Positions 3,031 to 64,000 of a stretch of 64,000 nt of DNA are shown here, in pieces. How positions within the stretch are numbered: the first letter of the stretch is position 1; the number at the start of each line of letters is the position of its first letter. Source of the DNA: Eledone cirrhosa (taxonomy: Eukaryota); the NCBI GenBank assembly GCA_964016885.1, contig OZ024740.1:24862001-24926000 (forward strand), in the 5' to 3' direction. The notes under the pieces are model-generated. The model was not told the origin of the DNA, did not search any database, and worked only from the letters and a program-made list of their open reading frames with translations. The position numbers and the translations under genes were made by a program.

Positions 3031-3069
<39 letters not shown>

Positions 3070-3278
3070 CGTTTCTGAATTTGTTTAGCAAGATTCTTTA
3101 TCTGAAATCGTGTGTTGAAACCGATATTGTTATACTTTGGGAGGGTCATGTTGCCAATAAGAAACACACGCACCAGTTGCTTTCACTTCAATTTAATTTA
3201 TTAAATATTTATAAATTTACAAATTTATAAATTTCTGGTTGGTTGGTTGGTTCCACAACCAGATAGTTGTTTATATAT

Positions 3279-3323
3279 AGTCATAGTTCTTTCGTCACAC
3301 ACTCTGTGACCTCTTCAGTGACT
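3279..3323 (-). ncRNA. Minimal type I hammerhead ribozyme, PLE2 3' pLTR
   Basis: Reverse complement of 5125-5169. Confidence 0.8.
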
Positions 3324-5124
3324 GGGGATTTCTTTCTTCGTTTCTGTGCCTTTCCTTTCTTCTATCCTACGCCATTTTGTTTGTGTGTGGGTTGCGTGCT
3401 CAGTTTGCGCATGCGCCACATCCGGGTGTCTGTGTGTGTTTGTGTTCATTTTTCTATTTTTCTATTTATATTTTTCTATTTGTTTGTTTATTTATTTATT
3501 TATTGTTGGTTGGTTGTTTGTTCTATGTGTGTGTGTGTTTTCATTTTGTCGTGTGTGTGTTTTCATTTTGTGTGTGTTTTCAATTGTAAGTTGTTTGTTC
3601 TATGTGTGTGTGTGTGTTTTCATTTTGTCCTTAATTGTAAGTTGTGATGTTGCTGTTCCACTCATATTTTCTATTTAATTTTGGTTTTAATTCTTTTATG
3701 CTTACTGCCTCTGTAATTTGCCTAAACATTGCGTCTTTCTTGTGTGTGGATTCTATTTTTATTTCTATGCTCTCTAATTTACCCCTGTGTTCTATCTTAG
3801 CATGTTGGTAGAGCACATATGATTCTTTATTATCTTGGAGGTCTCGCCAGTGTTCATTTATTCGTTCCCCTATACTACGAGCTGTCTCACCTATGTACAC
3901 TACATTTTTGTTTCTACATTGTCCTTCAGTACATCTTATGCTATATACTACATTTCTAGTTTTACAGTTAATATGGGGGCTTATTTTACAGGTTATACAT
4001 TGCTTATCTATACATGAGGGTCTTTGGAACGGGTATGTCTTGCTAATAAGTGTTTATACGGAGGTACCAGGTCTTTCTACTATCTTAATATTGAGATTAT
4101 GTTTCTTTAGGGCCCTTCTAAATTTGTAGGCTAGTTCGCCTCTAGGGGTTGTATTGATGAACATTACACTCTGGTATTTATTGCTATCATACCATGAGTT
4201 TATTCTATTGGCCTTGTTCTTAGTTCTTTCTATTCTATTCCAAAATTTGCTCCTATACAAGGGGCAGGTCCCATTTATGTCATTATTTACCATTTTTTCC
4301 CATTTGGTTCTGGCTCCTTTATACACTCTGATTCTATCTCTCTGATTGTAGCGAGAGAACTGCATACGGTGGATGAAGTGTTGTATGTGTCTCTTTAGTT
4401 CTTCGGGGTTGCACATGCGGGACACATTTCTCATCACCCGTACCAAATCCGCAATCAGTATGTTGATTTTGGTATGGTCCGAAATGGCCGAGTTTCGGTG
4501 GATCAGATGTTTGGAAGTCATGGGTTTGGCATAATGGGAATGGAGGATTTGTTTTTGGTTGTTAATAGTATCTAACCAGAGCTCTGTGTCTAGTACAGGT
4601 AATCGATGGTTGGGGTGTCTACTTGGGTAGTCTATAGTAACTCTAATGCTCTGGTGGATGGAGTTTGCTATTTGCTGGATGCTTTCCAAAAATAGAATCC
4701 ACACACAAGAAAGACGCAATGTTTAGGCAAATTACAGAGGTAGTAAGCATAAAAGAATTAAAACCAAAATTAAATAGAAAATATGAGTGGAACAGCAACA
4801 TCACAACTTACAATTAAGGACAAAATGAAAACACACACACACACATAGAACAAACAACTTACAATTGAAAACACACACAAAATGAAAACACACACACGAC
4901 AAAATGAAAACACACACACACATAGAACAAACAACCAACCAACAATAAATAAATAAATAAACAAACAAATAGAAAAATATAAATAGAAAAATAGAAAAAT
5001 GAACACAAACACACACAGACACCCGGATGTGGCGCATGCGCAAACTGAGCACGCAACCCACACACAAACAAAATGGCGTAGGATAGAAGAAAGGAAAGGC
5101 ACAGAAACGAAGAAAGAAATCCCC

Positions 5125-5169
5125 AGTCACTGAAGAGGTCACAGAGTGTGTGACGAAAGAACTATGACT
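5125..5169 (+). ncRNA. Minimal type I hammerhead ribozyme, PLE2 inverted pLTR
   Basis: AGTCA-CTGAAGA-G-GTCACA-gagtg-TGTGAC-GAAA-GAAC-TA-TGACT, with perfect stems I and II. Confidence 0.82.
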
Positions 5170-5316
5170 ATATATAAACAACTATCTGGTTGTGGAACCA
5201 ACCAACCAACCAGAAATTTATAAATTTGTAAATTTATAAATATTTAATAAATTAAATTGAAGTGAAAGCAACTGGTGCGTGTGTTTCTTATTGGCAACAT
5301 GACCCTCCCAAAGTAT

Positions 5317-5359
<43 letters not shown>

Positions 5360-9238: not shown

Positions 9239-12040
9239 GAATGAAGAATAACATGGGCCGCTAATCGCTCGAAGTTGCATCACTAGATCTTCATTACATT
9301 ATTTACCTCTGACTCAAGATATATTTATAGAGAAATAGCGTATAATCAAACCGATTAAATCAATAATAAAATATATGATACATAGATAAAGAAGTTACAG
9401 ATGTAAAAAGTAAAAGATAAGAAAAAAGATACAGTAAAAAGTAAGAAAATGGAAAAATAAGAAAAATATAAAGAAATAAGGATAAGTGAGAGCATATAAG
9501 AACAGAATATGATAGTGGTGGTGGTGACTAAGTTTCCGTATAAGGATGCTGTGGTGGATTTAGTGCTAACATGAAAAGTCATATTCGAAACATATATAGA
9601 TACGTGTAGAGAGTCTGAGCTAGTGGTAGATGAAAAAAAAGCTTTTGAATTAGAGATTAATTGGGAGATACTAGTATAGGACCAAAGGGCTAAGGGTGGA
9701 TGGTGAAGGGAGGTTTGACAAATGTGTGTGGTAAATGTTTTGCTGATTGTCTTGTCTTAATGGGGTTGATTCCGTTTCAGGGAGAGAGGGTGAAATAGAT
9801 GTTAAGAGATTTATGATCTAGTGACCAGTCGGCTGTTTGACAGCCAATAGTGGTGTGATGGTATATATTCCATATGTTAAAATCCAGATGCTTCAGTTCT
9901 AATTTTGCGATTACTTGCTCGAATCACGGTGGTTTGAAATTTGTGAACTTGGTAGCTATTTTATGCCTACAGAAAATTGATGTTTCTATTTTGCTGTTAA
10001 GCATCTTATCGTACCTTAACATATGGAATAGCTCCATATTGCAAAGTCTGCAATGGGACATTCCATTGTCGTAGGCCCTTTGACCAGCTAATCCTATATT
10101 CCTGGTTTGTGTTTTTAATCTGCCCGATTTTATTGGCGAGCGTCGTAGAGACCTCCAGTCTATGGATCTTCATGGAGTGTCTATGAACGTACCACCTTCT
10201 TTTGAACTCCCCAGCCGTGGAACCTAGGTAGTGCCAAGTAAAGTTGCCTGAATTTACAGTACACAGGTACACCATACTCGAATCCAGGCATCTATTTTGT
10301 AGTGGACACTTATGCGGTAGGTGGCAGTTACATTTGGAGGCTTTTCTGTGTGCAGGTTCTCCGTTGCGGTTTTGTATATTGTTGTGGGTGGGTTGCGATT
10401 TAGGTCTATTAGCGTTTTGTTGTGATGCGCCCTGATGTATGTGTGGTTGCGATGTTGTGTTTGCGTTTTGTACAATGGTGTATGTTGGTAGGTTACTTTC
10501 TTTAGAGATATTTTTGTGTTTGATTTTATGTCTGTGTGATTCTATGTTGGCTGCAGTAGAGTAAGATAGTTGATAGTTCTTCTATTAAATATTCTATGCT
10601 ATTTGTGTAGTTTAGGGAAGTGTTTGTCTATTAGCTTAAAGAATGTAGCAGGTAGTTTGGTTTTTATAGATGATTTGAATATTGGATTTCCTATCTCTGG
10701 ATCTTCTATAGTTCTTTGGGATCCTTATATTAGTGTTCGGTTCAGTTATTTTTGGTGCTCGTTGTCTAATTCTATGTTTAGTCATATGTTTGTTATTTCT
10801 ATAGGTGTGGGTAGTGTAGTTGTCGTTAGGTTTGTTGCTGCTGTCTCTATATGTTATGTATTTTAGCCCCTCCTTATGTCCTGCCTTATGTAAAGATATG
10901 TTATAATAGTCTGCGTGTTCATTGAAAATCTCTAGGTTAGAAGACAGGCTGGATATTCTGAGGGCTATACTATGTGCTATGGAGTTAATTATGGATCGGG
11001 GTGGTTTGAGATATAACTAATGTAGGCTAGATTCTCGTTATTTTTGTGGAAGGGCTCTATTAATCCTGTGTTTAGGTTGAGTGTTACATCTAAGAAGTTT
11101 GCTTTTTTAGAGTTAAGTTCGAAAGTGATACCTAAGCCTAGTTTGTTGAAGAAAACTGATGTTTTTCCGTAATTTTTCCATGTTTTGATTATTTAAGTTT
11201 TTGGCTAAAAGGAGTGTGTCGTCTCTATAAATTCCTCCCTGGAGGATATTGAATTCCTTATGTAAGTTGTGCGCTATATATATTCCCACTAAGTCCGTTA
11301 CCTGTGCTGAGTCGTTAGATCCCATTGTGATATCGAAGCTATTCTGTTTGTTTTTTCGTTCCCAGTAACTAGTTTCAAATCTAATGATAGTTTTCCTAGC
11401 CGCTAGTATTATTTTAATTTCGTCCGAGGTAAGGTCCGAAGTTTTCTGGACAAAAGTTAGCGCTTTATCTAGGGTGACTGGGGATGTGGATGAGTAGTAG
11501 TCATTACTGTCCAACTGTACGAAGTTGTATATTTCTCTACTGTCTATTTTGCTGAACCAGTCTATTGCTTCGTTAGTGTTACCCCATAGCTTAATTAGTA
11601 GTTTGTCCTTGATTTGTGCGATTACTCTATCTAGTATATATACTTGCTAATTCTACCTATAACCAACTTCGATGGGCATATTTATCTAATTGCGGGGTCT
11701 GTTTCGAAATTGTTTTTGTGATCCTTTAGGCTAAATGTGGGTTACAAGGGGTTAGAGGCCCGGTTCTATCAGATATTTTCAGTTTTTTTACTCTGCTAAA
11801 TCCTTCCTTATTAATGCTAGTGAGTGCAGATTCTGTGGTTTTCTTGTATTTTGTTGTGCAGTTCACGGCGTATAAAGTTGTTGTAGGTATTAAGGCTCAT
11901 GGTGTATACATTTGATGTTTTGTCCGCTTCTACTATAATACCGTTGGTGCTACGTAGTTTTTTTAGTAGTGCATTGATGTCGTTTTGCAGTTTGTTGTGA
12001 TGTGTCCGTTTTTTTAATGTGGTTCCTCTTATCATGTTCA
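9237..12040 (-). mobile_element. Penelope-like retroelement 3 (YRDD-type RT, possibly Nematis clade), decayed
   Basis: ADKTSNVY (11817-12041); FDITMGSNDSAQVTDLVGIY and GGIYRDDTL (11113-11514); GIY-YIG VYLCTV..YLGSTAGEFKRRWYVH (10006-10275) with CPL..CL and a C-terminal CRH. Multiple frameshifts; bounded by (TA)n. Confidence 0.9.
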
Positions 12041-13607: not shown

Positions 13608-15394
13608 ACCAGTTCCTGTACACAGCTAAGTATTCTATAAGTCTCTAGCTGTGTCATTCTCGATAAAAGCACTGGATATGTAGTCCTGATGATTTCTAAC
13701 GAGAATGAAACGCGTAGATTACTTCCCTTGCTTTTATCGAGAATCTAATTGTAATACGTGACGTATTCTATTCTATAGCGATTAGGTCTTCAAAATGTTT
13801 ATTATAAACATACAGAATATTTTCGAATATTCTATGTCTATATTCACATATATATCGCTATTTCAGAGCATTTATTCCAATTTCTAATTTCTGCCGGACC
13901 GGCAACCGCTCTTTCAAACCAGTTCCTGTACACAGCTAAGTATTCTATAAGTCTCTAGCTGTGTCATTCTCGATAAAAGCACTGGATATGTAGTCCTGAT
14001 GATTTCTAACGAGAATGAAACGCGTAGATTACTTCCCTTGCTTTTATCGAGAATCTAATTGTAATACGTGACGTATTCTATTCTATAGCGATTAGGTCTT
14101 CAAAATGTTTATTATAAACATACAGAATATTTTCGAATATTCTATGTCTATATTCACATATATATCGCTATTTCAGAGCATTTATTCCAATTTCTAATTT
14201 CTGCCGGACCGGCAACCGCTCTTTCAAACCAGTTCCTGTACACAGCTAAGTATTCTATAAGTCTCTAGCTGTGTCATTCTCGATAAAAGCACTGGATATG
14301 TAGTCCTGATGATTTCTAACGAGAATGAAACGCGTAGATTACTTCCCTTGCTTTTATCGAGAATCTAATTGTAATACGTGACGTATTCTATTCTATAGCG
14401 ATTAGGTCTTCAAAATGTTTATTATAAACATACAGAATATTTTCGAATATTCTATGTCTATATTCACATATATATCGCTATTTCAGAGCATTTATTCCAA
14501 TTTCTAATTTCTGCCGGACCGGCAACCGCTCTTTCAAACCAGTTCCTGTACACAGCTAAGTATTCTATAAGTCTCTAGCTGTGTCATTCTCGATAAAAGC
14601 ACTGGATATGTAGTCCTGATGATTTCTAACGAGAATGAAACGCGTAGATTACTTCCCTTGCTTTTATCGAGAATCTAATTGTAATACGTGACGTATTCTA
14701 TTCTATAGCGATTAGGTCTTCAAAATGTTTATTATAAACATACAGAATATTTTCGAATATTCTATGTCTATATTCACATATATATCGCTATTTCAGAGCA
14801 TTTATTCCAATTTCTAATTTCTGCCGGACCGGCAACCGCTCTTTCAAACCAGTTCCTGTACACAGCTAAGTATTCTATAAGTCTCTAGCTGTGTCATTCT
14901 CGATAAAAGCACTGGATATGTAGTCCTGATGATTTCTAACGAGAATGAAACGCGTAGATTACTTCCCTTGCTTTTATCGAGAATCTAATTGTAATACGTG
15001 ACGTATTCTATTCTATAGCGATTAGGTCTTCAAAATGTTTATTATAAACATACAGAATATTTTCGAATATTCTATGTCTATATTCACATATATATCGCTA
15101 TTTCAGAGCATTTATTCCAATTTCTAATTTCTGCCGGACCGGCAACCGCTCTTTCAAACCAGTTCCTGTACACAGCTAAGTATTCTATAAGTCTCTAGCT
15201 GTGTCATTCTCGATAAAAGCACTGGATATGTAGTCCTGATGATTTCTAACGAGAATGAAACGCGTAGATTACTTCCCTTGCTTTTATCGAGAATCTAATT
15301 GTAATACGTGACGTATTCTATTCTATAGCGATTAGGTCTTCAAAATGTTTATTATAAACATACAGAATATTTTCGAATATTCTATGTCTATATT

Positions 15395-15404
<10 letters not shown>
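13608..15404 (+). repeat. Tandem array of 310-bp hammerhead-containing units (5.8 copies), retrozyme-like
   Basis: AGTTCCTGTA recurs at 13611, 13921, 14231, 14541, 14851 and 15161. Units look identical by eye, and each has one HHR. Confidence 0.95.
13656..13744 (+). ncRNA. Extended type I hammerhead ribozyme, unit 1 (repeated every 310 bp, 6 copies)
   Basis: GTAGTC-CTGATGA-T-TTCT-aacg-AGAA-T-GAAA-CGCG-TA-GATTAC. A perfect 16-bp distal stem pairs ATTCTCGATAAAAGCA with TGCTTTTATCGAGAAT. Predicted cleavage is after A13716. Confidence 0.88.
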
Positions 15405-15431
<27 letters not shown>

Positions 15432-15880
15432 GTGTGTATGTGAGAGAGAGAGCGATAGAGTGAGAAAGAGAGAGTGAGTGAGAGAGAGAGAGAGGGAGAG
15501 AGAGAGAGAGAGAGAGAGAGTGTCTGTGTGTGTGAGAGTGTGTGTGTGCGTGTGTGTGTATTTTGGAAAGTGATATATGTAATAAGGCCAAACAGTACAA
15601 AATGGACGGTAAGGTGAAGAAAACGAAGAAATTAGTTTCCTGGTAATCTTTGTTATAGTTTACTGTTTCTTTCGTCTTAATATTTTGGGACTTAGAACCC
15701 CCTTCTTCGGAGTATAAGGAAGTCTCACATAATTTTTTTTAATAAAGTGAGATTTGGGCTTATATTTAATTTAAGACGAATTCAATTTGTCTAGTTCGAT
15801 AAATTTACATTTAATTCTTCCTAAGTAACGGATTTGCCTATGATCGAAAGTTGAATATTATATAGTTTCTTATATACATT

Positions 15881-16222
15881 GCTATTTCAGAGCACCAATC
15901 CTAATACCTAATGTTTGCTGTACCGGCAATCACATGTATAATCCGCTCCTGATTATTACTGGAATTCTATAAGAATCCATCTTTTATAATTTTCGGCGGA
16001 AGCAAGGGGTTCTTCGCTCTGATGAACGCCAACCAGCGTGAAACAGACTGTCAGCTTCTCTCCCTTCTTTCCCCGAAAATAAGTAAGTAACATAGTCACT
16101 ACTTTAAAACTGATAGCCTATGGTCTTCTAAATGTGTTTAGTTAAACATACAGTATATTGCCAAATATACTATACATACATTCATGTATACATCGCTATT
16201 TCAGAGCACCAATCCTAATACC
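15881..16222 (+). mobile_element. Diverged ~314-nt retrozyme-like monomer with terminal direct repeat
   Basis: GCTATTTCAGAGCACCAATCCTAATACC occurs at 15881 and 16195. Sequence and hairpins are collinear with the 310-bp unit. Confidence 0.82.
15989..16080 (+). ncRNA. Extended type I hammerhead ribozyme
   Basis: GCT-CTGATGA-ACGC-caacca-GCGT-GAAA-CAGACTG-TC-AGC, plus distal stem ATTTTCGG..AAGGGG / CCCTT..CCGAAAAT. Confidence 0.82.
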
Positions 16223-19132: not shown

Positions 19133-19636
19133 TATTATTAGAAATGTAAGCTATCGCCGTATTTTGACTAAAGAAATTAAAGAAATTATTTAGTCTGATA
19201 GTGGGGTTAAGAACCCTCGGAGAAATGGAAAAAAAGATGAGTATTGAGGTACATGGGAGTCGAACCCTCATCTTTGGTTATCCGAACCACTGTGATACCA
19301 TTTACACCAACACATCACCCGTTCCTTTCCATTCAAATTAGAAGCTATAAACTTAGCGACTGTAATGTCAAGTAAGAATATTTTCGAATATTTTCTAATT
19401 TGAATGGAAAGAGACGGGTGATGTGTTGGTGTAAATTGTAGCACAGTGGTCCGGATAACCAAAGATGTGGGTTCGACTCCCACGTACGTCAATACTCATC
19501 TTTTTCCATTTCTCCGAGGGTTCTTAACCCCACTATCAGGCTAAATAATTTCTTTAATTTATTTAGTCAAAATACGGCGATAGCTTACATTTCTAATAAT
19601 TTCAAACCCACTCGCTGTTTCGAAAATATTCTTACA
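19133..19636. mobile_element. Inverted pair of tRNA-like-headed elements (arms ~19133-19343 and ~19391-19600)
   Basis: Both arms carry A box TGGTGTAAATGG and B box GGGTTCGA. The ~210-bp inverted repeat is TA-flanked. A partial copy lies at 49732-49872. Confidence 0.75.
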
Positions 19637-22525: not shown

Positions 22526-22566
22526 GCATCTACGTACGTTTCGCCCAGTTGGGCTTCTCAAGGGCA
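22526..22566 (-). ncRNA. Hammerhead motif, U3-A8 core variant
   Basis: Reverse complement reads TTGAGAA-GCCC-aact-GGGC-GAAA-CGTACG-TA; stem I is weak. Confidence 0.6.
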
Positions 22567-22809
22567 TAAATAAACAAAAGTGTTCCTTACATTGCTCCGA
22601 GCAACATAAATAGCCGTCGAAACGGCTTGAGCTCTGCCGTCGGGGTCATACTATTTCCTATTTCATACTATACTACTCTAAGTATTGAGTACTCTGGTGA
22701 GTTATGGTCCATCTGGTTCCTTACCACAATTCCTTTGTTATATATATATATATGTGTATATATATAAAAATGTATATATATATATGTATACTGATATATA
22801 TATATATGA

Positions 22810-22990
22810 GTTTGTGTCTATATTATAACTGCATTTTTGACCGTTGGTCAGACATGGTAAACATTGAGGACCGAATAAATAACTGATATAAAAGATACAG
22901 AAGCGAAAACCAACCAAACAGTGAGTGTGTTCTGTTATTAATTATGGCAATATTATTACAACAATATGGCCCTCCCCAAATATAACAATA
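22810..22990 (+). mobile_element. Fragment of PLE1-type pLTR
   Basis: Aligns to 2700-2905 (TTTTTGACCGT..CAACCAAACAGTGAGTGTGTTCTG..CCCTCCCCAA). Confidence 0.8.
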
Positions 22991-23077
22991 TATATACTCA
23001 GTATATATATACTCAGTATATATATATACTCAGTATATATATACTCAGCCGTTAATATGCATAAGTTAAGTATATAC

Positions 23078-23161
23078 GTTCAACAATCTGGCAGGAAGGT
23101 ATATGTTGCTGACGATAGCTAATAAGCTTGAAACTAGTACGTTCCTTCGTCAGTGTTGAAC
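23078..23161 (+). ncRNA. Extended type I hammerhead ribozyme within a third retrozyme-like monomer (~23046-23370)
   Basis: TG-CTGACGA-T-AGCT-aata-AGCT-T-GAAA-CTAG-TA-CG, with distal stem GTTCAACA..CTGGC.GGAAGG / CCTTC-GTCAG-TGTTGAAC. Confidence 0.8.
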
Positions 23162-23404
23162 AAACGAGCAACGATGGTTGCTAGACACTACGGCTTAATA
23201 CGGGATGTTTGTTTTCAAACACACCGAGCATTATAATAAATGTTCGGTGAATCCATACGTACATATATATATGTGTGCATGTATGTATATATATATACAT
23301 ACTACTGTACGTCTGTATACATATATGTATGTACGTGTACGTACTTATATTTAAGTAACAGCCGTACTAAGAATGGGAAATGAAATTTCGTTTCATTTTT
23401 TTCC

Positions 23405-23500
<96 letters not shown>

Positions 23501-23503
<3 letters not shown>

Positions 23504-24193
23504 AATATGATAATAATGGAGCTGCGGCGTTGCAAATGGGTTACATATGAAAAAGTTTGTCCTTCATCAGTGATCTTCCAACCATCATAGGCATTTCATC
23601 GCTTTAAAGACCATATACCTCCGGTTGGTGCGAGCAACGGCTAAAAAAAGTCGTTGGGACACGTAAATAAAGGGGACGCGAGGGTAAACAAACAAAATGG
23701 TTTAAGCAACAGAAAGTGATGAAGAAAGAGACATGTCCCAGATTTCTATGAATTTAAATTCGGTGAAATCGTGAACGAGAAAATAAATACCATGAAACCT
23801 GGTTGAAATGTGAGCAAGGAAGGAATTTCGCACAGGTCTAACGGGGGAAGAAGGGGTCTGGTCTGCGAATTCGGTAAACATAAGTTCTGTGAAATCGTAG
23901 ACGAGAGAGAGAAAAAAATTCATACCAGCTTGGCCAGCGTGCGAGAGAAAAGAATCACACACAGGTCAAACGGGAAGAAAGAGGAGGAGGAGAGGTAGTG
24001 ACAGAGAATGAGTGAGTGAAGGGTGAGGAAGAGGCTAACAGAGAGAGAGACTGGTAGAAAGGATAAAGATACAAAGAACGAAACAGACGGGTAGCAGCAG
24101 AGGAAAAAATATATGTGTAAATATGATAATAATGGAGCTGCGGCGTTGCAAATGGGTTACATATGAAAAAGTTTGTCCTTCATCAGTGATCTT
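23501..24193 (-). mobile_element. Non-coding ~620-nt element with terminal direct repeats, copy B (different permutation from copy A)
   Basis: Direct repeats 23501-23577 and 24117-24193 (period 616). Collinear with 5360-6149. Confidence 0.82.
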
Positions 24194-25832: not shown

Positions 25833-26986
25833 TAAAATAACTGTTTCTACATTAGGAACAAGGCCAGCAATTACCCAGTGCATTACTGGTACTGTATTTT
25901 ATCGACCCCGTAAGGATGAAAGGCAAAGTCAACCTCGGCAACATTGTCGAGTATGGCCATTGCATGATATAACATTATTAATTATTATCAATAAATGTTA
26001 TGGTGCAATGCCTGTGCGTGAAGATATTTTAATGTGAGGAAAAACTGTGCACTGAGCTAATCCTATTCTCTGAGCGACAGTAGCTATAACCCTAAAAGAA
26101 GAAAAGATCAACATCATCGGTAACTACTGAGTCTCAGGTTTTATGTCGGAGTTATACCACTTTCCTGACTTACCTTCTCCTAGAAGAATGCCCTGACAAA
26201 GGCTAGGGGTCCTTCACTTCCTGTGGTTTAATCGCGCGATCGTGTATCCAACCCGATTATTTCTATGCCCCCGTGCATATACATACACATGAATACATGT
26301 ATATACATATATACATATATATATATGTTTATATATATATATTTGTGACTAATCCCAGTTTTTTAAAAAAAACCTGCGATAATATTTCTTTATGCTGAAC
26401 TCCATATTTTTTGTTGTGTTTTTTCGGAATGTTTTGACTGTTGTTCCTTGAAAACAGATTTTCATTTCATCCCGGCATCACTAGCCTGGGTCCACGTGTG
26501 TTTTGTTATTTCAATTCAACACGCTGTTCACTTGCCTGCTTTTAAATTCCCCTCTGGCATCTTAGCAGTGGTTTTAGTTAACGTCTTGAGCACTACTGAT
26601 GAACGACTCCAACCTTGACTAACCCCACTGAAAAGTATCGTGAAATAGTCTTTTTAGATTGTAAAGTGCATTTGCAGATTTCCCCAAATTGACGGTTAAG
26701 TATTTCTTCTTGATTTTATTTTGAGTTAAGATTGTGTTGGTTTTTTTCCCCAGGTTACACAAAGTCTGAGAATAAAATTTTTCTTCTTGACTTGTTTTGA
26801 ATTAAGATTGAATTATTTATACCATATCTTACGTTAAAAATTATTCATCTTGATGTTATAGTCACTTATATGTCTGAATTATTGTCGGCTTTTTACTTAC
26901 ATTAATTTCTCTATTTTCCTTTATATATATATATATATATGGAGAAGAAGTTTATGAAACGGAAATGCAGGTATAAAGAATTTATT

Positions 26987-27103
26987 AGGTAACAATTGTT
27001 TCTATACTGTATGGGTTACCTATACCTCGCTATTTGAATAACATAAAAATATTATCATAAACCGAAGGTACGCTGCAAGCAAACACAACATGTCGTCAGA
27101 CCT
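26987..27103 (-). ncRNA. Hammerhead with ~90-nt stem II, PLE4 3' pLTR
   Basis: Reverse complement reads AGGT-CTGACGA-C-ATGTTGTGT...ATACAGTAT-A-GAAA-CAATTG-TT-ACCT. Confidence 0.68.
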
Positions 27104-28944
27104 TTGTATTGGAATGATATGAAAATATTTTATACACTAGATAAAAGAGAAAGAAGGAGGTAGGAAGAGAAGGGGAAGAGGGAAGTGAGTAAGGTGGAGG
27201 GAGTCCTAGGATTTAAGACTGTCAGACTAGTAGAGATTGTAAGGAGAGAATGTTTTGGCAGCAGTTAGCTTAATGAGGTGTGTTAGGGTTGGCGGGGGAA
27301 GTAAATTCTTCTAGTGGTGTTGTTTGGACAAAATTTAGTTAAAGGGGTCAAAGTGGTACAGAGTTACAGAAAAGTTATTGGGGCTATTATAGTAGCAGGT
27401 TATTTCTAAAGGGGTTCAGAAAACAGTGTTTAGTACTATTATTATAGAAAGTCATATCTTGTGTATAAACATATAAAACAGAAATTTGCAAACGGTGGTG
27501 TAAAAAGGTAACATTACATGCATTTAAAAAAAGAAAAAGTCGTTTTCAAACGATGGTTACAGTACAGTGAACGTTCAATTTTGCTGTTCAAAAGTTTGTT
27601 TACCGACGTTAAAATGTAGTATATCTCCATATTGCATAATTTACAGAATCGATGATTTTGCCCATATGCAGGCGCGCACAATAATTTACCAATCAAGGAA
27701 GAATGCTTGATTGTTCCTCCGGAGCTGCCAGACTTTATCGGCGAGGGTTGTTACGGAGCGCATTTTCTCGTGCCTGATCGAAGATCGATGTTGGTATAGG
27801 CGAGCTTTGAAAGAAGTTGCGGTACATCCGACGTAATACCATTTGTTGGTTCCGGAATTTATTGTACATCGGTAGACAATATTGCGTGCTAGGCACTGGT
27901 TATTCAGTGGGAACGTACCTGGTTTGGTGCAGTTACAATTATTTTTATGTTTTGCAGTAGTATCCTGGATAGTTTGGTGGGGTTGTAGTTGCGTGTTAGT
28001 GCGTTGTATGTTGCTATGCTGGTGCGCTGAGTCATTAGGGATGTACTTATTTAGTATTGCTGAGTTGAGTTTTTTAATTAGTTGTTCTATGTTAGGTGCA
28101 GTGGAATATGAGAGTCTAATGGTGCGCGAGTTAAAGATTTTATAGTATTTATGTGAAGTTGTAAAGTGTTTATTGATTAGTGTATAGAATTGTGAGATAA
28201 TCTTAGTGCTAATAGAAATATTGTACACGAGGTTATACCATATGTACTCTCTACGTCTGACTCTATTTGCTGGTTTGCACCTATTAGTATGCCTATTGAT
28301 GTGTGTGTGTGGTGCAATACTAGTTCGACTTAGATGTGTTTTATTCATAGTACTTATGTGGTTATCGTCTAGATATTCTATTTTCTCAAGTAACCAGCTG
28401 TTCTAAGTGCGTCATTTTAATATTCAGCATGCTCGTTGAAGGTCTGCAAATTCGACGACAGTCGGGAGATCCTTATAGATATATTTTTAGGGATAGATTT
28501 AATAATGGAATGGGGATGGTTCGATTTTACATTAACGTACTTGAGATTCATTAAGTTTGTGAAATGGCTCTATATTACCGTTATTAAGGTTGAAGGTGAC
28601 ATCCAAGAAGTTGACCACCTTAAGATTTCTGGACCCCTTTAGAAATAACCTGCTACTATAATAGCCCCAATAACTTTTCTGTAACTCTGTACCACTTTGA
28701 CCCCTTTAACTAAATTTTGTCCAAACAACACCACTAGAAGAATTTACTTCCCCCGCCAACCCTAACACACCTCATTAAGCTAACTGCTGCCAAAACATTC
28801 TCTCCTTACAATCTCTACTAGTCTGACAGTCTTAAATCCTAGGACTCCCTCCCCCTTACTCACTTCCCTCTTCCCCTTCTCTTCCTACCTCCTTCTTTCT
28901 CTTTTATCTAGTGTATAAAATATTTTCATTTCATTCCAATACAA

Positions 28945-29061
28945 GGGTCTGACGACATGGTATGTTTGCTTGCAGCGTACCTTCGGTTTATGATAATATT
29001 TTTATATTATTCAAATAGCGAGGTATAGGTAACCCATACACTATAGAAACAATTGTTACCT
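28945..29061 (+). ncRNA. Hammerhead with ~90-nt stem II, PLE4 inverted pLTR
   Basis: GGT-CTGACGA...GAAA-CAATTG-TT-ACC. Confidence 0.65.
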
Positions 29062-29217
29062 AATAAATTCTTTATACCCGCATTTCCGTTTCATAAACTT
29101 CTCCATATTTTCTCCGGATTTTAAAACACACTTTATTATACGTTGAGCAATCTCCGACGTCGGTTGACTCCATCCAATGCAACTACTTAGTAACATTGGA
29201 ATACAAATTTACTAATT

Positions 29218-29640: not shown

Positions 29641-29810
29641 CTGTCGTCCTTGGCCCTAGTACCACCTTATTCACCACCATTGGCTCGGAGTTGTGTGCCC
29701 GCAAATGTAAGTCATGCGAGCTGGAATTGTACTTCCAACGCGTCTCCACCACCATTCACCGGAGAAACTTCTTCACTATTCTCTCCGCTGGGGTCGTTGG
29801 GCGGCTAGCA
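29641..29810 (+). mobile_element. CRE-type non-LTR retrotransposon 3' remnant
   Basis: Homologous to 47520-47860 (restriction-like endonuclease C-terminus); preceded by (CATA)n. Confidence 0.7.
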
Positions 29811-30390
29811 ACTGAGCCCCTATTTGCTTATAATGGTGAGAGATGATGAGTGCGAGAGAGACAGAGGCAGTGAGAGAAAGAGAGAGAACATAAACACACA
29901 CACGTACTTGATAAGTTAAGAAGAAACTAACCTCCTACTTGTATCACTAAAATGACACTGTGTATATATATTATTTTACTTACGGTGTAGAAGGAATATA
30001 AATGCTTCAGCTTAAGTGTGAGGGTATGCCTGCGAACCTGTACTTTGGCATGGCCATCTAAGCTGGTGCAAATAGTAGCGCAGATGTCCGGAAAACAAGA
30101 CATCTGCGCTACTATTTGCACCAGCTTAGATGGCCATGCCAAAGTACAGGTTCGCAGGCATACCCTCACACTTAAGCTGAAGCATTTATATTCCTTCTAC
30201 ACCGTAAGTAACATAATATATATACACAGTGTCATTTTAGTGATACAAGTAGGAGGTTAGTTTCTTCTTAACTTATCAAGTACGTGTGTGTGTTTATGTT
30301 CTCTCTCTTTCACTCACTGCCTCTGTCTCTCTCGCACTCATCATCTCTCACTATTATAAGCAAATAGGGGCTCAGTTGCTAGCCGCCCAA
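29797..30390. repeat. Near-perfect 594-bp palindrome (292-bp arms, 10-nt loop 30089-30098)
   Basis: Mirror ORFs 29927-30169(-) and 30018-30260(+). The arms differ at only a few positions. Confidence 0.95.
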
Positions 30391-33465: not shown

Positions 33466-34179
33466 ATAGTAGATATAGCTTGGCAACATGGTTCAGAGGT
33501 TTACATAATGAGATACTACGTTCACTCACAACAGTATAGCAACTTGTATTTGGTTTACTTCTAGCCATGTGAATGAAACTGGTTCCATGGAAGTTGTTTG
33601 GAAAGTCCTCAGATAGACTATACATGTAGATCAAACGGCTAGCAGTGTTACACTGAATCTCTCTGAAAATAATATAATGGCATATATGTCTGTGAAATAA
33701 TCAATCATTTACAAGTTAGCTTAACGCATAAGCCGTTCCCTCGATCGAATAATCGGAAAAATTGACGGAGACACCTCTACAAAGACATACCTGGTAGTTA
33801 TCTTTTACAAAGACACTTGGTAGTTATATTTTCCAATTTTGATGGATGAAAATAAAAAGTAGATTTCAACAAAGTTTCAACACAGAAACTAAAACGCTTT
33901 AATTAATTATCGGAACAGTAATTTCCCTCACTTTACCGGTTCTGCAGTTTGGTCATGTGTTCAGATTTCACTAGTCAGCCGTTCATCATATCAGTGGCTT
34001 ATAACACTTATCCAACGCTTATGAGGTAATGCAAACTGCGAGAAAGATCAGGCGAATCTTTCCTTTTCTTTTTCATTACACACAAATATTACACTGTAAT
34101 AGGATCCTTACTGTAGTGAGTCTGAGTTAAAGGCAGAAAGGTCACGACTGGATTGTATTTGATCGTATGTACGGAGAAG

Positions 34180-36105
34180 AAGAGCTGGGTGGAAAAACAT
34201 AGAGAAGTGATTCCCACCAGATTCACAGTGCCATTTATATTAGTCGCAGTCACACTTATTCTGGAAAACAACACATTCTTCTTCAATGGAAAAAATTACA
34301 TTCAAATTAGAGGCACAGCGATGGGAACGAAGTTTGCTCCCGTTTACGCGAACTCTGTAATGGGATACTTAGAACAACAAATCTACCAAGAAATAGAGGA
34401 AAAATATAGCACTGAATTTAGAAAGTACATTGAAAAGTCATGGAAGAGATACCTTGACGACTGTTTCATCATCTGGACAGAATCTCTAGATACTCTGGAT
34501 GAGTTCAATATCCTCCTGAATAACCTACACACATCTGTCCAATTTACAAAAGAGATGAGTAGTACCAAATTACCATTCCTAGATATAATGGTAATCAAAA
34601 ACGACATCACCATTACCACGGATATATAATATAAACACACAGACACCCATCAACATCTGAATTTTAAGTCATGCCATCCACCTCATACAAAACGCAACAT
34701 CCCATACTGCCTAGCCAGAAGAATGTGTACCATTGTAGAAGATACGAATACCAGGAACAAACGACTAACAGAACTGAGAGAATTTTTGCTCAAACAAAAA
34801 TACCCATCTCTACTTATAGAAAATGGCATACAGCGGGCTATAAAAATACCTATGCAGCAACTTAGGACAACCCAAGGAAGAAGAAATCAAGAACTGGTCA
34901 TACCATTTATAATGACACACAAACCCTGTCACCAGAATATCTTCAACACTGCCAAAGCAAACCTACCGATCATTGGTCAACGTAATGAATTAAAAGGCTT
35001 AATCACAGACCGATCTTTGACTCTTAGTAAAAGACAGCCGAAAAATTTGAAGCAATTACTAACGAAGGCAAAGTTTGACCTTAACAACAAAGACCAATTA
35101 TTCACTGTATCTAAATGCAATGATAGTCGATGTGGCACATGTCAATCCATACACACCGGTCAATATATGAACACAAAAACTCGAAAAATATTCCCAAATG
35201 CAAATATGAACTGCAAAAGCAGAAATCTAATTTACTGCATTAAATGCCCGAATTGTGAAGAGCTATATGTCGGTCAAACTGGAAATGCACTATCAGAACG
35301 TGCACGAGTGCATCGACAGCAAATCAGAGACCCCAAATGTCCGTCAGATACCAAATGTCCGTGAGATACCCAAATGTACTGAGTAACCATCTAGCAATAT
35401 GTGGTCAGAAAATATTTATAATATTTCCATTCTACAAACTACACAGCCCAAGTGAAATGAAGAGAAACATTAAAGAAAAGAATGTTCTTGATAAATTCCA
35501 ACCCAAGTTAAATGAACAATAATAATGCTTAGGGGTATTACTCCTACTATGACTACGCCTAAGACCATGTCGGCTACCACCAGTAACAACAACAACAATA
35601 ATAATAATAAAAGTGATGTTGCTGTTGATGATTACTGAAGATTTTTATAAAAAAACATAGAAAACGGTATTTTGATCATTTCTAAAAATAGCAAAACAAA
35701 AGATGCTTTGGATAGGGTCAAATAGAAGTCGTTAGACATGCTCAACCAACCGTGACGCCTAAACCAATCAGCTTTAGTAATCTAGTGAAACCACACACCG
35801 ATTGGTCGAGATAAAGTTTGCAAAACTTAACATTCTGTAGCCCCTTTTTACTGTATATAAGGCACAGATTTTAGCCATCTCACTACAGTTGAACATTGCA
35901 AACTTGACTGTCACCACTGAATATGAACCTGATGATTGCGAAAGCATGAAAGTACTTGTTCAATTAACATTTAACATTTAATATTCTACCATACTATTTC
36001 ATTATAACATCATTAAAATTTTAAAGATTGTAAATAAAACGAGTAAATCAGACAAAGTTGGAATTCCTTTTATTAATATAATCTTCTATACACAATGATA
36101 TACAC
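34180..36105 (+). mobile_element. Penelope-like retroelement 5, 5'-truncated, probably Neptune-type (Cys-rich linker)
   Basis: YIQIRGTAMGTKFAPVYAN, WKRYLDDCFIIW, LPFLDI, KCNDSRCGTC, and GIY-YIG NLIYCIKCPNCEELYVGQTGNALSER. A stop at 34629 and a ~20-bp duplication at ~35330-35375 disrupt the frame. Confidence 0.92.
35924..35962 (+). ncRNA. Minimal type I hammerhead ribozyme in PLE5 pLTR
   Basis: TGAAC-CTGATGA-T-TGC-gaaa-GCA-T-GAAA-GTAC-TT-GTTCA, with a perfect stem I and palindromic stem III. Confidence 0.85.
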
Positions 36106-36110
36106 GCGTG

Positions 36111-39957: not shown

Positions 39958-42900
39958 GGTATGGTATGGTATGGGATGGTATGGGATGGTACTGTATGGT
40001 ATGTTATGGTATGGTATGGTATGGTATGTTATGGTATGGTATGGCATGGTATGGTATGGATGGTATGGTATGATATGGGATGGTACTGTATGGTATGGTA
40101 TGGAATGGTATGGTATGGTTATAGTACGGTATGGGATGGTACGGTATGGCAGGGTATGGTATGGTATGATATGGTGTGGTATGGTACGGTATGGTATGGT
40201 AGCTATGGTATATTAGGTATGGTATGACATGATTATGGTATGGTAAGGTATGGTATGGTATGGTATGGCACGGTATGGTAAGGTATGGTATGGTATGATA
40301 TGGTACGGTATGGTATGGTATGGTACGGTATGGTATGGTATGATATGGTATGGTACGGTATGGTATGGTATGGTATGTTATGGTATGGTATGGTATGGTA
40401 CGGTATGGTATGGTATGGTATGGTACGGTACGGTATGGTATGGTATGATATGGTACGGTACGGTACGGTATGGTATGGTATGGTATGTTATGGTATGGTA
40501 CGGTATGGTATGTTATGTTATGGTACGGTATGGTATGGTATGGTATGTTATGGTATGGTATGGTATGTTATGGTATGGTATGGTATGTTATGTTATGGTA
40601 TGGTATGGTATGGTATGTTATGGTATGGTATGGTATGGTACGGTATGGTATGTTATGTTATGGTACGGTATGGTATGTTATGTTATGTTATGGTACGGTA
40701 TGTTATGGTATGGTATGGTATGGTATGGTATGTTATGGTATGGTATGGTATGTTATGGTATGGTATGGTATGGTATGTTATGGTATGGTATGGTATGGTA
40801 TGTTATGGTATGGTATGGTATCGTACGGTATGGTATGTTATGTTATGGTACGGTATGGTATGTTATGTTATGTTATGGTACGGTATGTTATGGTATGGTA
40901 TGGTATGGTATGGTATGTTATGGTATGGTATGGTATGGTATGGTATGTTATGGTATGGTATGGTATGTTATGGTATGGTACGGTATGTTATGTTATGTTA
41001 TGTTATGGTACGGTATGTTATGGTATGGTATGGTATGGTATGGTATGGCATGGTATGGTATGGTATGGTATGGTATGGTATGGTATTGTACGGTATGGTA
41101 TTTTATGTTATGTTATGGTATGTTATGGTATGGTATGGTATGTTATGGTATGGTATGGTATGGTATGGTATGTTATGGTATGGTATGGTATGGTATGGTA
41201 TGGTATGGTATGGTACGGTACGGTATGGTATGGTACGGTATGGTTTGGTATGTTATGTTATGGTACGGTACGGTACGGTATGGTGTGGTATGGTATGGTA
41301 TGGTATGGTACGGTATGGTATGGTAAGGTCTGGTACGGTATGGTATGGTATGGTGCGGTATGGTATGGTAGATATGGTATATTAGGTATGGTATGACATG
41401 ATTATGGTATGGTAAGGTATGGTATGGTATGGTATGGTATGGTACGGTATGGTATGGTATGGTATGGTATGGTATGGTATGGTATGGTATGGTATGGTAT
41501 GGTATGGTATGGTATGGTATGGTATGGTATGGTATGGTATGGTATGATATGGTACGGTACGGTATGGTATGGTATGGTATGGTATGGTATGGTATGGTAT
41601 GTTATGGTATTGTATGGTATGCTATGTTATGGTATGGTATGGTATGGTATGGTATGGTATGGTATGTTATGGTATGGTATGCTATGTTATGGTATGGTAT
41701 GCTATGTTATGGTATGGTATGGTATGGTATGGTATGTTATGGTATGTTACGGTACGGTATGGTATGGTATGGTATGGTATGGTATGGTATGGTATGGTAT
41801 GGTATGGTATGCTATGTTATGGTATGGTATGGTATGGTATTGTATGGTATGGTATGGTATGGTATGGTATGTTATGGTATGGTACGGTACGGTATGGTAT
41901 GGTATGGTATGTTATGGTATGGTATGGTATGTTATGGTATGGTATGGTATGGTATGTTATGGTATGGTATGGTATGGTATGTTATGGTATGGTATGGTAT
42001 GGTACGGTATGGTATGGTATGTTATGGTACGGTATGGTATGTTATGTTATGTTATGGTACGGTATGTTATGGTATGGTATGGTATGGTATGGTATGTTAT
42101 GGTATGGTATGGTATGGTATGGTATGGTATGGTATGGTATGTTATGGTATGGTATGGTATGGTATGGTATGGTACGGTATGTTATGTTATGTTATGTTAT
42201 GGTACGGTATGTTATGGTATGGTATGGTATGGTATGGTATGGCATGGTATGATATGGTATGGTATGGTATGGTATGGTACGGTATGGTATTTTATGTTAT
42301 GTTATGGTATGTTATGGTATGGTATGGTATGTTATGGTATGGTATGGTATGGTATGTTATGGTATGGTATGGTATGGTATGGTATGGTATGATATGGTAC
42401 GGTACGGTATGGTATGGTACGGTATGGTTTGGTATGTTATGTTATGGTACGGTACGGTACGGTATGGTGTGGTATGGTATGGTATGGTACGGTATGGTAT
42501 GGTAAGGTCTGGTACGGTATGGTATGGTATGGTGCGGTATGGTATGGTAGATATGGTATATTAGGTATGGTATGACATGATTATGGTATGGTAAGGTATG
42601 GTATGGTATGGTATGGTATGGTACGGTATGGTATGGTATGGTATGTTATGGTATGGTATGGTATTGTATGGTATGGTATGGTATGGTATGGTATGGTATG
42701 GTATGATATGGTACGGTACGGTATGGTATGGTATGGTATGGTATGGTATGTTATGGTATGGTATGGTATGCTATGTTATGGTATGGTATGGTATGGTATG
42801 GTATGGTATGTTATGGTATGGTATGCTATGTTATGGTATGGTATGCTATGTTATGGTATGGTATGGTATGGTATGGTATGTTATGGTATGTTACGGTACG

Positions 42901-43485
42901 GTATGGTATGGTATGGTATGGTATGGTATGGTATGGTATGGTATGGTATGGTATGGTATGCTATGTTATGGTATGGTATGGTATGGTATTGTATGGTATG
43001 GTATGGTATGGTATGGTATGTTATGGTATGGTACGGTACGGTATGGTATGGTATGGTATGGTATGGTATGGTATGGTATGGTATGTTATGGTATGGTATG
43101 CTATGTTATGGTATGGTATGGTATTGTATGGTATTGTATGGTATGGTATGGTATGTTATGGTATGGTACGGTACGGTATGGTATGGTATGGTACGGTACG
43201 GTATGGTATGGTATGGTATGGTATGGTATGGTATGTTATGGTATGGTATGCTATGTTATGGTATGGTATGGTATTGTATGGTATTGTATGGTATGGTATG
43301 GTATGTTATGTTATGGTATGGTACGGTACGGTACGGTATGGTATGGTATGGTATGCTATGGTATGTTATGGTATGGTATGCTATGTTATGGTATGGTATG
43401 GTATTGTATGGTATGGTATGGTATGGTATGTTATGGTATGGTACGGTACGGTATGGTATGGTAAGGTATGGCATGATATGGTATG
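39958..43485. repeat. (TATGG)n pentanucleotide satellite with ~1.17-kb higher-order duplication
   Basis: Unit variants TATGT, TACGG and TATTG. Marker TATATTAGGTATGGTATGACATGA occurs at ~40209, ~41378 and ~42557. Confidence 0.97.
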
Positions 43486-43814
43486 GACACATATCACCTG
43501 GTGGGAGCGGTAGGGGCGCCGTTGTGAAATACAGCATTCTTGGGGATTTTAAGCCTGGCGGGCCCATATCTCTTCAGGTTTGAACACAACAGATTTCTTC
43601 CCGAGAAAGAATGTGTGTGTCTGTGTGTGATTATATGTGTGTGTGAGTATATGTGTGTGGGGGGAGAGGGAGAGAGAGAGCGGAAGAATCGACCCCATTA
43701 CAAGATAGGTATTTTTTTATCGTACAAAAAAAAAGGATCGTCGACCTTCGTTAAACCGGACCGAGGAAACAATGTCTCCGTTCGTCTTTCCAGTTGCTAA
43801 GACTATCTATCTGT

Positions 43815-62800: not shown

Positions 62801-64000
62801 ACAGGAAGTTCTAGTGACATTGTGACATGATCAGATATTGGAGTTACAGGAAGTTGTTGTGACATTGTGACACGTTCAGATATTGGAGTTACAGGAAGTT
62901 CTAGTGACATTGTGACATGGTCAGATATTGGAGTTACAGGAAGTTGTAGTGACATTGTGACATGGTCAGCTATTGGAGTTACAGGAAGTTCTAGTGACAA
63001 TGTGACATGGTCAGCTATTGGAGTTACAGGAAGGTCTAGTGACATTGTGACATGGTCAGATATTGGAGTTACATGAAGTTGTAGTGACATCGTGACATGG
63101 TCAGATATTGGAGTTACAGGAAGTTTTATTGACGATGTGACATGGTCAGCTATTGGAGTTACAGGAAGTTCTAGTGACAATGTGACATGGTCAGCTATTG
63201 GAGTTACAGGAAGTTGTAGAGACATTGTGTGACATGGTCAGCTATTGGAGTTACAGGAAGTTGTAGTGACATTGTCACATGGTCAGCTATTGGAGTTACA
63301 GGAAGTTCTAGTGACAATGTGACATGGTCAGCTATTGGAGTTACAGGAAGTTCTGGTGACAATGTGACATGGTCAGATATTGGAGTTACAGGAAGTTCTA
63401 GTGACATTGTGACATGGTCAGCTATTGGATTTACAGGAAGTTGTAGTGACATTGTGACATGGTCAGCTATTGGAGTTACAGGAAGTTCTATTGACATTGT
63501 GACATGGTCAGATATTGGAGTTACAGGAAGTTCTAGTGAAAATGTGACATGGTCAGCTATTGGAGTTACAGTAAATTGTAGTGACATAGTGACATGGTCA
63601 GCTATTGGAGTTACAGGAAGTTCTAGTGACAATGTGACATGTTCAGATATTGGAGTTACAGGAAGATCTATTGACATTGTGACATGTCAGATATTGGAGC
63701 TACAGGAAGTTCTAGTGACAATGTGACATGGTCAGCTATTGGAGTTACGGGAAGGTCTAGTGACATTGTGACATGGTCAGATATTGGAGTTACATGAAGT
63801 TGTAGTGACATCGTGACATGGTCAGATATTGGAGTTACAGGAAGTTTTAGTGACGATGTGACATGGTCAGCTATTGGAGTTACAGGAAGTTCTAGTGACA
63901 ATGTGACATGGTCAGCTATTGGAGTTACAGGAAGTTGTAGAGACATTGTGTCACATGGTCAGCTATTGGAGTTACAGGAAGTTGTAGTGACATTGTCACA
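56815..64000. repeat. 45-bp minisatellite array (>7.1 kb, ~160 units, continues past the window)
   Basis: Consensus GACATTGTGACATGGTCAG(C/A)TATTGGAGTTACAGGAAGTTCTAGT, with periodic 47-bp variant units and block duplications. Confidence 0.97.

Follow-up and report, generated by a model that had tools for sequence, protein, structure and literature searches.

The locus at 23042-23410 and its ribozyme

We found that positions 23042-23410 of the window (the whole 64,000-nt stretch of Eledone cirrhosa DNA that was analysed) hold one 5'-truncated copy of a non-coding hammerhead repeat of ~420 nt, here called family C (Table 1). With positions counted from the cut site on a circular 420-nt unit, the copy runs from position 323 round to position 273, is 96% identical to a reference array unit, and lacks ~50 nt of the unit at its 5' side; at about 23407-23410 it meets a (TA)n run. 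The preliminary description had placed a complete monomer of ~310 nt at 23046..23370, and on both counts our results differ: the copy is a 0.88-mer, and the unit is ~420 nt long, with an expanded CA/TA hairpin and tail. No stop-to-stop frame of at least 110 aa lies over the locus. The GC content of family C is about 0.4, and, apart from laps of the unit, its copies lack terminal repeats.

The 5' junction of the window copy was found at eleven other places, eight of which end at the long 3' site defined below, two at the short site (315-nt pieces), and one elsewhere; the stutter of short copies that precedes the window copy was absent from the 60 nt upstream of all eleven. Judging from its upstream sequence, the window copy likely sits in a TA run that follows the end of an older Penelope-like element (PLE). 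Just downstream, a ~75-nt segment is duplicated ~615 nt apart (23503-23575 and 24117-24193). A short element at 22600-22740, with GCCGTCGAAACGGC and a CCAGATGGACCATAAC end, recurs beside family C copies (L005:1370-1490 and the flanks of L176, L179 and L192) and is probably another (TA)n-targeting element.

Table 1. Coordinates of the features discussed, numbered from the first base of the window.
Feature	Position	Strand	Remarks
Penelope-like insertion	3068-5324		637-nt perfect inverted arms; GIY-YIG fragment; hammerheads at 3318(-) and 5130(+)
Family A insertion	13608..15405	+	5.8 identical 310-nt units; ends at the family A short site
Family B insertion	15873..16222	+	1.1-mer of a ~316-nt unit; ends at the family B long site
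Match (30 nt) to the 3' end of the element at 3068-5324	22962..22991	+	local score 40, against a shuffle mean of 19 and maximum of 30
5' junction	22988..23041	+	(TA)n; first bases of the element repeated in three additional short copies (stutter of 15-17 nt)
Truncated family C copy	23042..23410	+	single arm, 0.88-mer; ends at the 'long' 3' site
Type I hammerhead domain	23078..23161	+	extended stem I; U-U at stem II base; one-pair helix III with palindromic CUAG cap
Distal stem strands	23078 / 23154	+	GTTCAACA / TGTTGAAC
Hammerhead core	23109; 23130; 23134-23137; 23139	+	CTGACGA; GAAA; palindromic CTAG; end of cleavage triplet
Private 3-nt deletion	23139..23140	+	follows the cleavage triplet immediately on its 3' side; half of the proximal stem I 3' strand is lost
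Hairpin H1	23167..23182	+	equivalent place in all three families (covariance alignment)
Hairpins H2 and H3	23206..23248	+
H2 (TGTTT..AAACA)	23206-23221	+
H3 strands	23223 / 23239	+	ACCGAGCATT / AATGTTCGGT
H4, long CA/TA-rich hairpin	23256..23350	+	~95 nt; fold -38.7 kcal/mol; longer than in the sister families
Penelope-type 'tail'	23351..23407	+	~56 nt, between the two fixed ends
(TA)n target run, 3' junction	23408..23508	.
P1-type PLE copy	34126-36110		abundant family, many identical copies, often inverted pairs; U-U/palindromic hammerhead at 35929

All of the motifs named in the preliminary description (a hammerhead at 23078-23161, a CTAG stem III, a distal stem, the order of the hairpins, and a CA/TA-rich tract, at about 23256-23345) are present. 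In family C, an internal loop separates the six proximal pairs of stem I from its extension of 18 pairs, stem II comprises four pairs with a U-U at its base, and helix III is one pair under the palindromic CUAG; helices III of this one-pair, palindromic type are described in the relevant parts of PMC4209133 and PMC7229834 as requiring a dimer. The Rfam hammerhead models gave nothing at gathering score in the window and nothing at E<=5 in the intact copy L005. Rfam microRNA matches on the CA/TA hairpin were far below their gathering scores and were taken as composition effects. The segment 23046-23260 folds more stably than any of 200 shuffles (z = -5.7), and the circular unit of the intact copy L015 has a minimum free energy of -140 kcal/mol (z = -8.8 against 60 shuffles) with 69% of its bases paired.

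CAGCCGT does occur at both 23046 and 23359, as had been pointed out, but the 313 nt between them is not the period of the repeat: array units measure 418-435 nt, and a repeated 7-mer with at least four G+C appeared in 208 of 1000 shuffled versions of the window copy, which leaves the recurrence within shuffle expectation. Either copy (23046-23052 or 23359-23365) can pair with a TACGGCT strand at 23189-23195; pairing with one closes the hammerhead domain, and the other lies in the tail. A conformational switch is thus possible, with the CAGCCGT repeat itself within chance.

The predicted cut falls after 23139. Next to it, the window copy alone among 84 complete hammerhead stretches carries the 3-nt deletion (86 anchored stretches were aligned, several from one array, and two truncated ones were set aside), and the 18-mer across the deletion junction occurs once in the 3.0-Gb assembly; as far as these sequences indicate, the deletion is private and did not spread in the family. 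Pair probabilities for the family stem I were 0.00 in the window copy as compared to 0.45-0.94 in L015. However, the intact copy L003, with the same stem I C-to-T change, also had near-zero stem I probabilities, so the fold test alone cannot isolate the effect of the deletion. Because the family stem I is predicted not to form and no second hammerhead adjoins that of the window copy, its ribozyme is likely inactive. The locus itself is a degraded, dead-looking fragment, and its value lies in comparison with its family.

Family C and its sister families A and B

The exact 31-nt hammerhead core of family C occurs 10,046 times in the genome (0 times for the reversed control), and by this exact-match search the core is invariant across those copies. 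A DNA search returned 2,156 candidates, and the 40 that were scored include full-length matches at 95-97% identity. Tandem versions, for which a genome search had been suggested, were found as head-to-tail and permuted units: arrays are present at many loci, and on contig C28 the matches span 109.96-110.07 Mb. The repeat unit measured 418-435 nt in each of five arrays, within which neighbouring units differ by 1-8%. The C28 array contains higher-order repeats, which point to its growth at the DNA level.

Pairing in the hammerhead domain appears to have been kept as the family diverged. Across eight family C copies, 91% of stem I cells were paired, and in older subfamilies four cells showed double changes, a count attained in 1 of 500 shuffles; since the covariation falls on only three pairs, this is modest evidence. 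Hairpin H1 likewise shows double changes at two pairs. As a possible trace of RNA editing, A>G changes, counted per locus, outnumbered T>C changes (52 vs 25), but a single polymorphic site supplied 14 of the 52. Parts of the family C unit also occur on contigs of three other organisms, where letters on both sides of stem I differ; at L015:1565 and 1601, relatives of family C from two other organisms differ at both positions of a stem I pair. A hammerhead motif is nevertheless no proof of activity, as 8 of 9 predicted Xenopus retrozyme dimers showed no cleavage in vitro in the data given in 10.64898/2026.07.22.740005.

Two related repeats lie nearby in the window. Family A (4,226 exact cores genome-wide by pattern search) aligns clearly with family B in sequence. 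Alignments of family C with A and with B were not significant locally (32/200 and 56/200 shuffles as good, respectively) and weakly significant globally (0/200 and 1/200). A covariance model built from ten B copies alone gave 98 bits for A and 42.2 bits for the window copy, whose alignment to it covered all 205 positions collinearly and kept the hammerhead and H1-H3 in register. When A and B were combined in one model, as had been proposed for the units at 13608 and 15881, the window copy scored 51.6 bits and was the top non-training match in the 64 kb; the next score, 37.2 bits, belonged to a stretch whose alignment with the B-only model was (TA)n-driven. Among 22 loci scored with the A+B model, out of 29 originally selected, eight complete family C copies in L015 and L005 reached 47.5-59.9 bits and 20 PLE loci at most 36.7. 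Because (TA)n inflates the covariance E-values and junk reaches 37 bits, we relied on the 14-bit margin and the collinearity of the alignment alone. The rank of the window copy as first among non-training matches argues that A, B and C are real structural relatives in these models, if by a modest margin.

Relative to its sisters, family C has an expanded CA/TA hairpin and tail. The earlier picture of three ~310-nt variants of one diverse family was right in that the three are structure-conserved, sequence-divergent, retrozyme-like relatives; they are, however, separate high-copy families rather than variants that arose locally, and their proximity in this stretch reflects the insertion of all three into (TA)n. 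Two head-to-head tRNA-like sequences at 19245-19491 (31 and 41 bits), likely heads of tRNA-derived SINEs, have in their spacer an 18-nt exact match to family A hairpin H3 (19375-19392).

Insertion anatomy and the Penelope-like elements of the genome

Insertion ends were surveyed at 59 family C loci (60 were fetched and one duplicate was dropped), with pieces shorter than 100 nt discarded. Most closed 3' ends (55 of 63) fell at two sites 56 nt apart: a long site at unit positions 263-277 (32 ends; near 23407 in the window copy) and a short site at unit positions 213-222 (23 ends), which is the 3' foot of H4, near 23350. Half of the loci (L001-L030) had been picked by likeness to the window copy, which favours long ends; at 12 loci taken in genome order, 13 of 18 ends lay at the two sites. 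After 49 of the 55 fixed ends the sequence runs into a TA-type run. The 5' ends, by contrast, were scattered round the unit with no pile-up at the cut site in the 59 loci, the two ends at position 1 being alignment breaks. The same loci contained 20 head-to-head pairs, and, with one open-ended pair aside, 18 of the other 19 combined one long with one short end. The window copy has one arm only, its inverted second arm being absent. As the targets are (TA)n runs, target-site duplications are unreadable.

The sister families end at positions equivalent to those of family C. All nine family A loci fetched, from the first listed multi-copy places, were two-armed with a short end at 139 and a long end at 163-170, and their arms reach 14.4 laps at 99.2-100% identity; in family B, 8 of 13 pairs had ends at 134-142 and 169-173. 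The short end coincides in all three families with the 3' foot of the CA/TA hairpin, and a CCGG motif follows 12-18 nt past the long end. We infer that the H4 foot and the long end of family C are two start sites for reverse transcription (RT), and the fixed ends of A, B and C likely mark where a Penelope-type enzyme begins copying.

This anatomy is that of the EN+ PLEs Poseidon PAc (Frangieh et al. 2024, PMC11167929) and Neptune/Naiad (Craig et al. 2021, 10.1101/2021.04.23.441226), for which those papers describe two internal RT starts downstream of the hammerhead, a one-sided tail, an inverted 5'-truncated copy, and an AT-rich or (TA)n target. In experiments reported in PMC11167929, purified PAc cut and extended both strands of AT-rich DNA in vitro, the tail lay between the two internal RT starts, and one start site lay inside a stem-loop that is AC-rich. 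Family C differs from these elements in having no ORF, in a unit that closes on itself, and in a canonical extended rather than minimal hammerhead; its tail is ~56 nt as compared to the usual 30-40 nt of PLEs, and the PLEs of the window likewise have longer tails. With its one-sided tail, inverted 5'-truncated arms and (TA)n bias, family C, on sequence grounds, works like a non-autonomous PLE. The non-autonomous Chlamys PLEs of 10.1101/2021.04.23.441226, such as MRC1, are by contrast green algal, most lack hammerheads according to that account, and they share 3' sequence with autonomous partners; no such partner was found for family C among the PLEs sampled. Our literature searches turned up no description of two-armed insertions or PLE tails for retrozymes.

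A possible enzyme source is present in the window. PLE family P1 encodes a 775-aa ORF with GIY-YIG, has short and longer ends on (TA)n, and carries the same U-U/palindromic type of hammerhead; its linker contains a CxxxxCxxC motif of the Neptune/Nematis kind (by motif only). The family, represented by the copy at 34126-36110, is apparently active and is a candidate helper for family C. The insertion at 3068-5324 has a ~60-nt tail on one arm only. Degenerate PLE fragments at 10006-11646 and 26946-29102, the latter region with 477-nt inverted arms at 26946/28626, are on their motifs presumably Hydra-like. Minimal hammerhead-like cores at 2648(+), 16880(+), 19878(+), 25768(-) and 26596(+), and by eye at about 22530-22565(-), are likely remnants of PLE pLTRs. 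Arms of 292 nt that are 99% complementary and 10 nt apart lie at 29797-30390, and two tandem arrays were seen: a (GGTAT)n array of about 700 copies at 39958-43486 and, at 56826-64000, a 45-bp minisatellite of about 160 copies with long open frames. Elsewhere in the genome, a two-armed family C insertion lies at the centre of an inverted PLE pair (L184:788-4265).

Shared sequence between family C and a PLE was sought in several ways. Comparison with the P1 and P2 pLTRs gave no significant similarity (9 of 300 shuffles as good for the best), and blastn gave no match in 60 PLE loci, a small part of the PLEs of the genome. Hydra-type PLE matches occurred in 9 of 59 family C flanks as compared to 4 of 24 and 4 of 29 controls; chimeras of these elements with family C were rejected because the pieces came from different families and at control rates. 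An apparent match between family A and P1 recurred in only two of five P1 copies and was not used. On the 5' side of family C copies there is no consistent RT/GIY-YIG ORF, the neighbour being another lap, an inverted arm or unrelated flank. We rejected family C as the pLTR of an autonomous PLE, given the lack of a consistent adjoining ORF and the extended, not minimal, stem I of its hammerhead. The alternative raised in the preliminary description, a PLE pLTR that never occurs in tandem, fails because tandem and permuted units occur and none of the 60 PLE loci has a matching pLTR.

Template and origin of the insertions

On its sequence, family C is an animal non-LTR retrozyme, with the features readable at that level present and cleavage and circles predicted. 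It agrees with the metazoan non-LTR retrozymes (Cervera and de la Pena 2020, PMC7229834), characterized there as 150-450-bp tandem repeats with one type I hammerhead per unit, GC below 50%, no LTR, PBS or PPT, a self-paired predicted circle, and coexistence with PLEs. Axolotl HHR_Amex1 has a similar palindromic tetraloop on a one-pair helix III, and HHR_Amex2 a similar U-U at the helix II base (PMC7229834). It differs from the retrozymes treated there in a unit size close to the top of the range, the ~95-nt CA/TA hairpin and the (TA)n targets, and its two fixed ends and two-armed insertions are not among the features described in the sections of that paper on which we draw; circles and cleavage are, for family C, predictions. 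The vertebrate non-LTR retrozymes (Li, Clavereau and Pollet 2026, 10.64898/2026.07.22.740005) similarly exist as monomer, dimer and multimer copies and co-occur with PLEs. Their authors propose that retrozymes hijack PLE enzymes, with co-distribution and pLTR homology as the evidence presented, and discuss local amplification; for family C, in contrast, the evidence comes from the anatomy of its insertions, and the PLEs sampled yielded no pLTR homologue.

What was copied was examined at 36 dispersed loci, with 24 array or duplicate loci, the CA/TA tract, CpG and site 47 excluded. Laps within one insertion shared 12.9% of non-majority letters, as compared to 1.3% (maximum 3.9%) in 1000 label permutations, and sharing was about equal between opposite arms (14.7%) and within the same arm (12.1%). 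Both arms would therefore derive from one template or one homogeneous source. A common variant at site 47 was concordant in 21 of 24 multi-lap loci and mixed in three. Because 5' ends do not pile up at the cut site, the template would be a circle or an uncut multimer rather than a cut linear monomer. A circular template is plausible; the lap sequences fit a circle and an uncut multimer alike.

We consider it probable that the window copy is a retrozyme fragment written into (TA)n by a PLE reverse transcriptase and GIY-YIG endonuclease, which probably copied an RNA circle. Tandem arrays would be transcribed and the hammerheads would cut the transcripts, likely in dimeric form, as helix III consists of one pair and a palindrome; the monomers would then be ligated into circles, as may be expected from the retrozymes of coral, mussel and axolotl. 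A PLE protein would nick both strands of a (TA)n run, with cDNA starting at the CA/TA hairpin foot and at a second site ~56 nt beyond it. Reverse transcription would pass the ribozyme cut site and stop variably, leaving one arm or two head-to-head arms with the tail on one side, and some copies would later expand at the DNA level into the long satellite arrays that are observed. For the window copy, this would mean a single arm primed at the long site and stopped after 0.88 lap.

The same PLE-driven insertion could instead have copied an uncut linear multimer from a homogeneous source array, with no circle and with the hammerhead as a passenger or serving another step. PLE insertion in vitro was unaffected by hammerhead mutants in the assays described in PMC11167929, and non-autonomous Chlamys elements insert as multi-copy units (10.1101/2021.04.23.441226); these two observations keep the linear route in consideration, and the long arrays as possible sources and the loci with a mixed site 47 speak for it as well. 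However, adjacent units in family C arrays are less alike than the near-identical laps of family A arms, and private variants are common to both arms as often as to laps of one arm. Related animal retrozymes also accumulate as circles, and the hammerhead core has stayed invariant with stem I pairing kept through double changes. We regard a linear multimer as the less likely template.

It is much less probable that, by a route discussed in 10.64898/2026.07.22.740005, unequal crossover following PLE insertion made a tandem repeat of a detached pLTR or satellite, the unit itself not being mobilised in trans. Xenopus retrozymes are related to pLTRs (10.64898/2026.07.22.740005), and the higher-order repeats of the C28 array suggest growth at the DNA level, but this route does not account for the dispersed copies, thousands in number, whose 3' ends are fixed, whose second arms are inverted and whose tails are one-sided, no PLE ORF is shared 5' of the units, and Hydra-type pieces occur at control rates. 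For the dispersed copies it is largely refuted. LINE twin priming also gives 5' inversions, a point in favour of mobilisation by a LINE or another non-PLE reverse transcriptase. Although the discussion in PMC7229834 leaves LINEs open, we give that origin the least credence, because neither fixed end has poly(A) or a LINE-like 3' end and the arms share overlapping sequence, with their ends at two fixed internal positions, a signature specific to PLEs in the accounts of PMC11167929 and 10.1101/2021.04.23.441226.

Within the favoured reading of a PLE-written retrozyme, we advance a further proposal more tentatively: the architecture common to A, B and C (hammerhead, H1-H4, tail and CCGG) may be a signal read by structure, such that a Penelope protein uses both strands of a cut in (TA)n to prime at two fixed sites on one RNA circle and copies the circle bidirectionally. 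If this is true, A, B and C would provide the first natural substrates for which the start sites of rolling-circle retrotransposition of animal ribozyme circles are defined to the base. For the priming and insertion of such circles, PLEs were only a strong candidate in the discussion of PMC7229834, and the mechanism is stated in 10.64898/2026.07.22.740005 to await elucidation. Family C offers putative start sites, resolved to the base, in agreement with the biochemistry of a purified PLE, and makes the long-suspected partnership of retrozymes and PLEs testable; because these sites are structurally equivalent in three diverged families, both the recognition signal and the choice between circular and linear templates can be tested directly.
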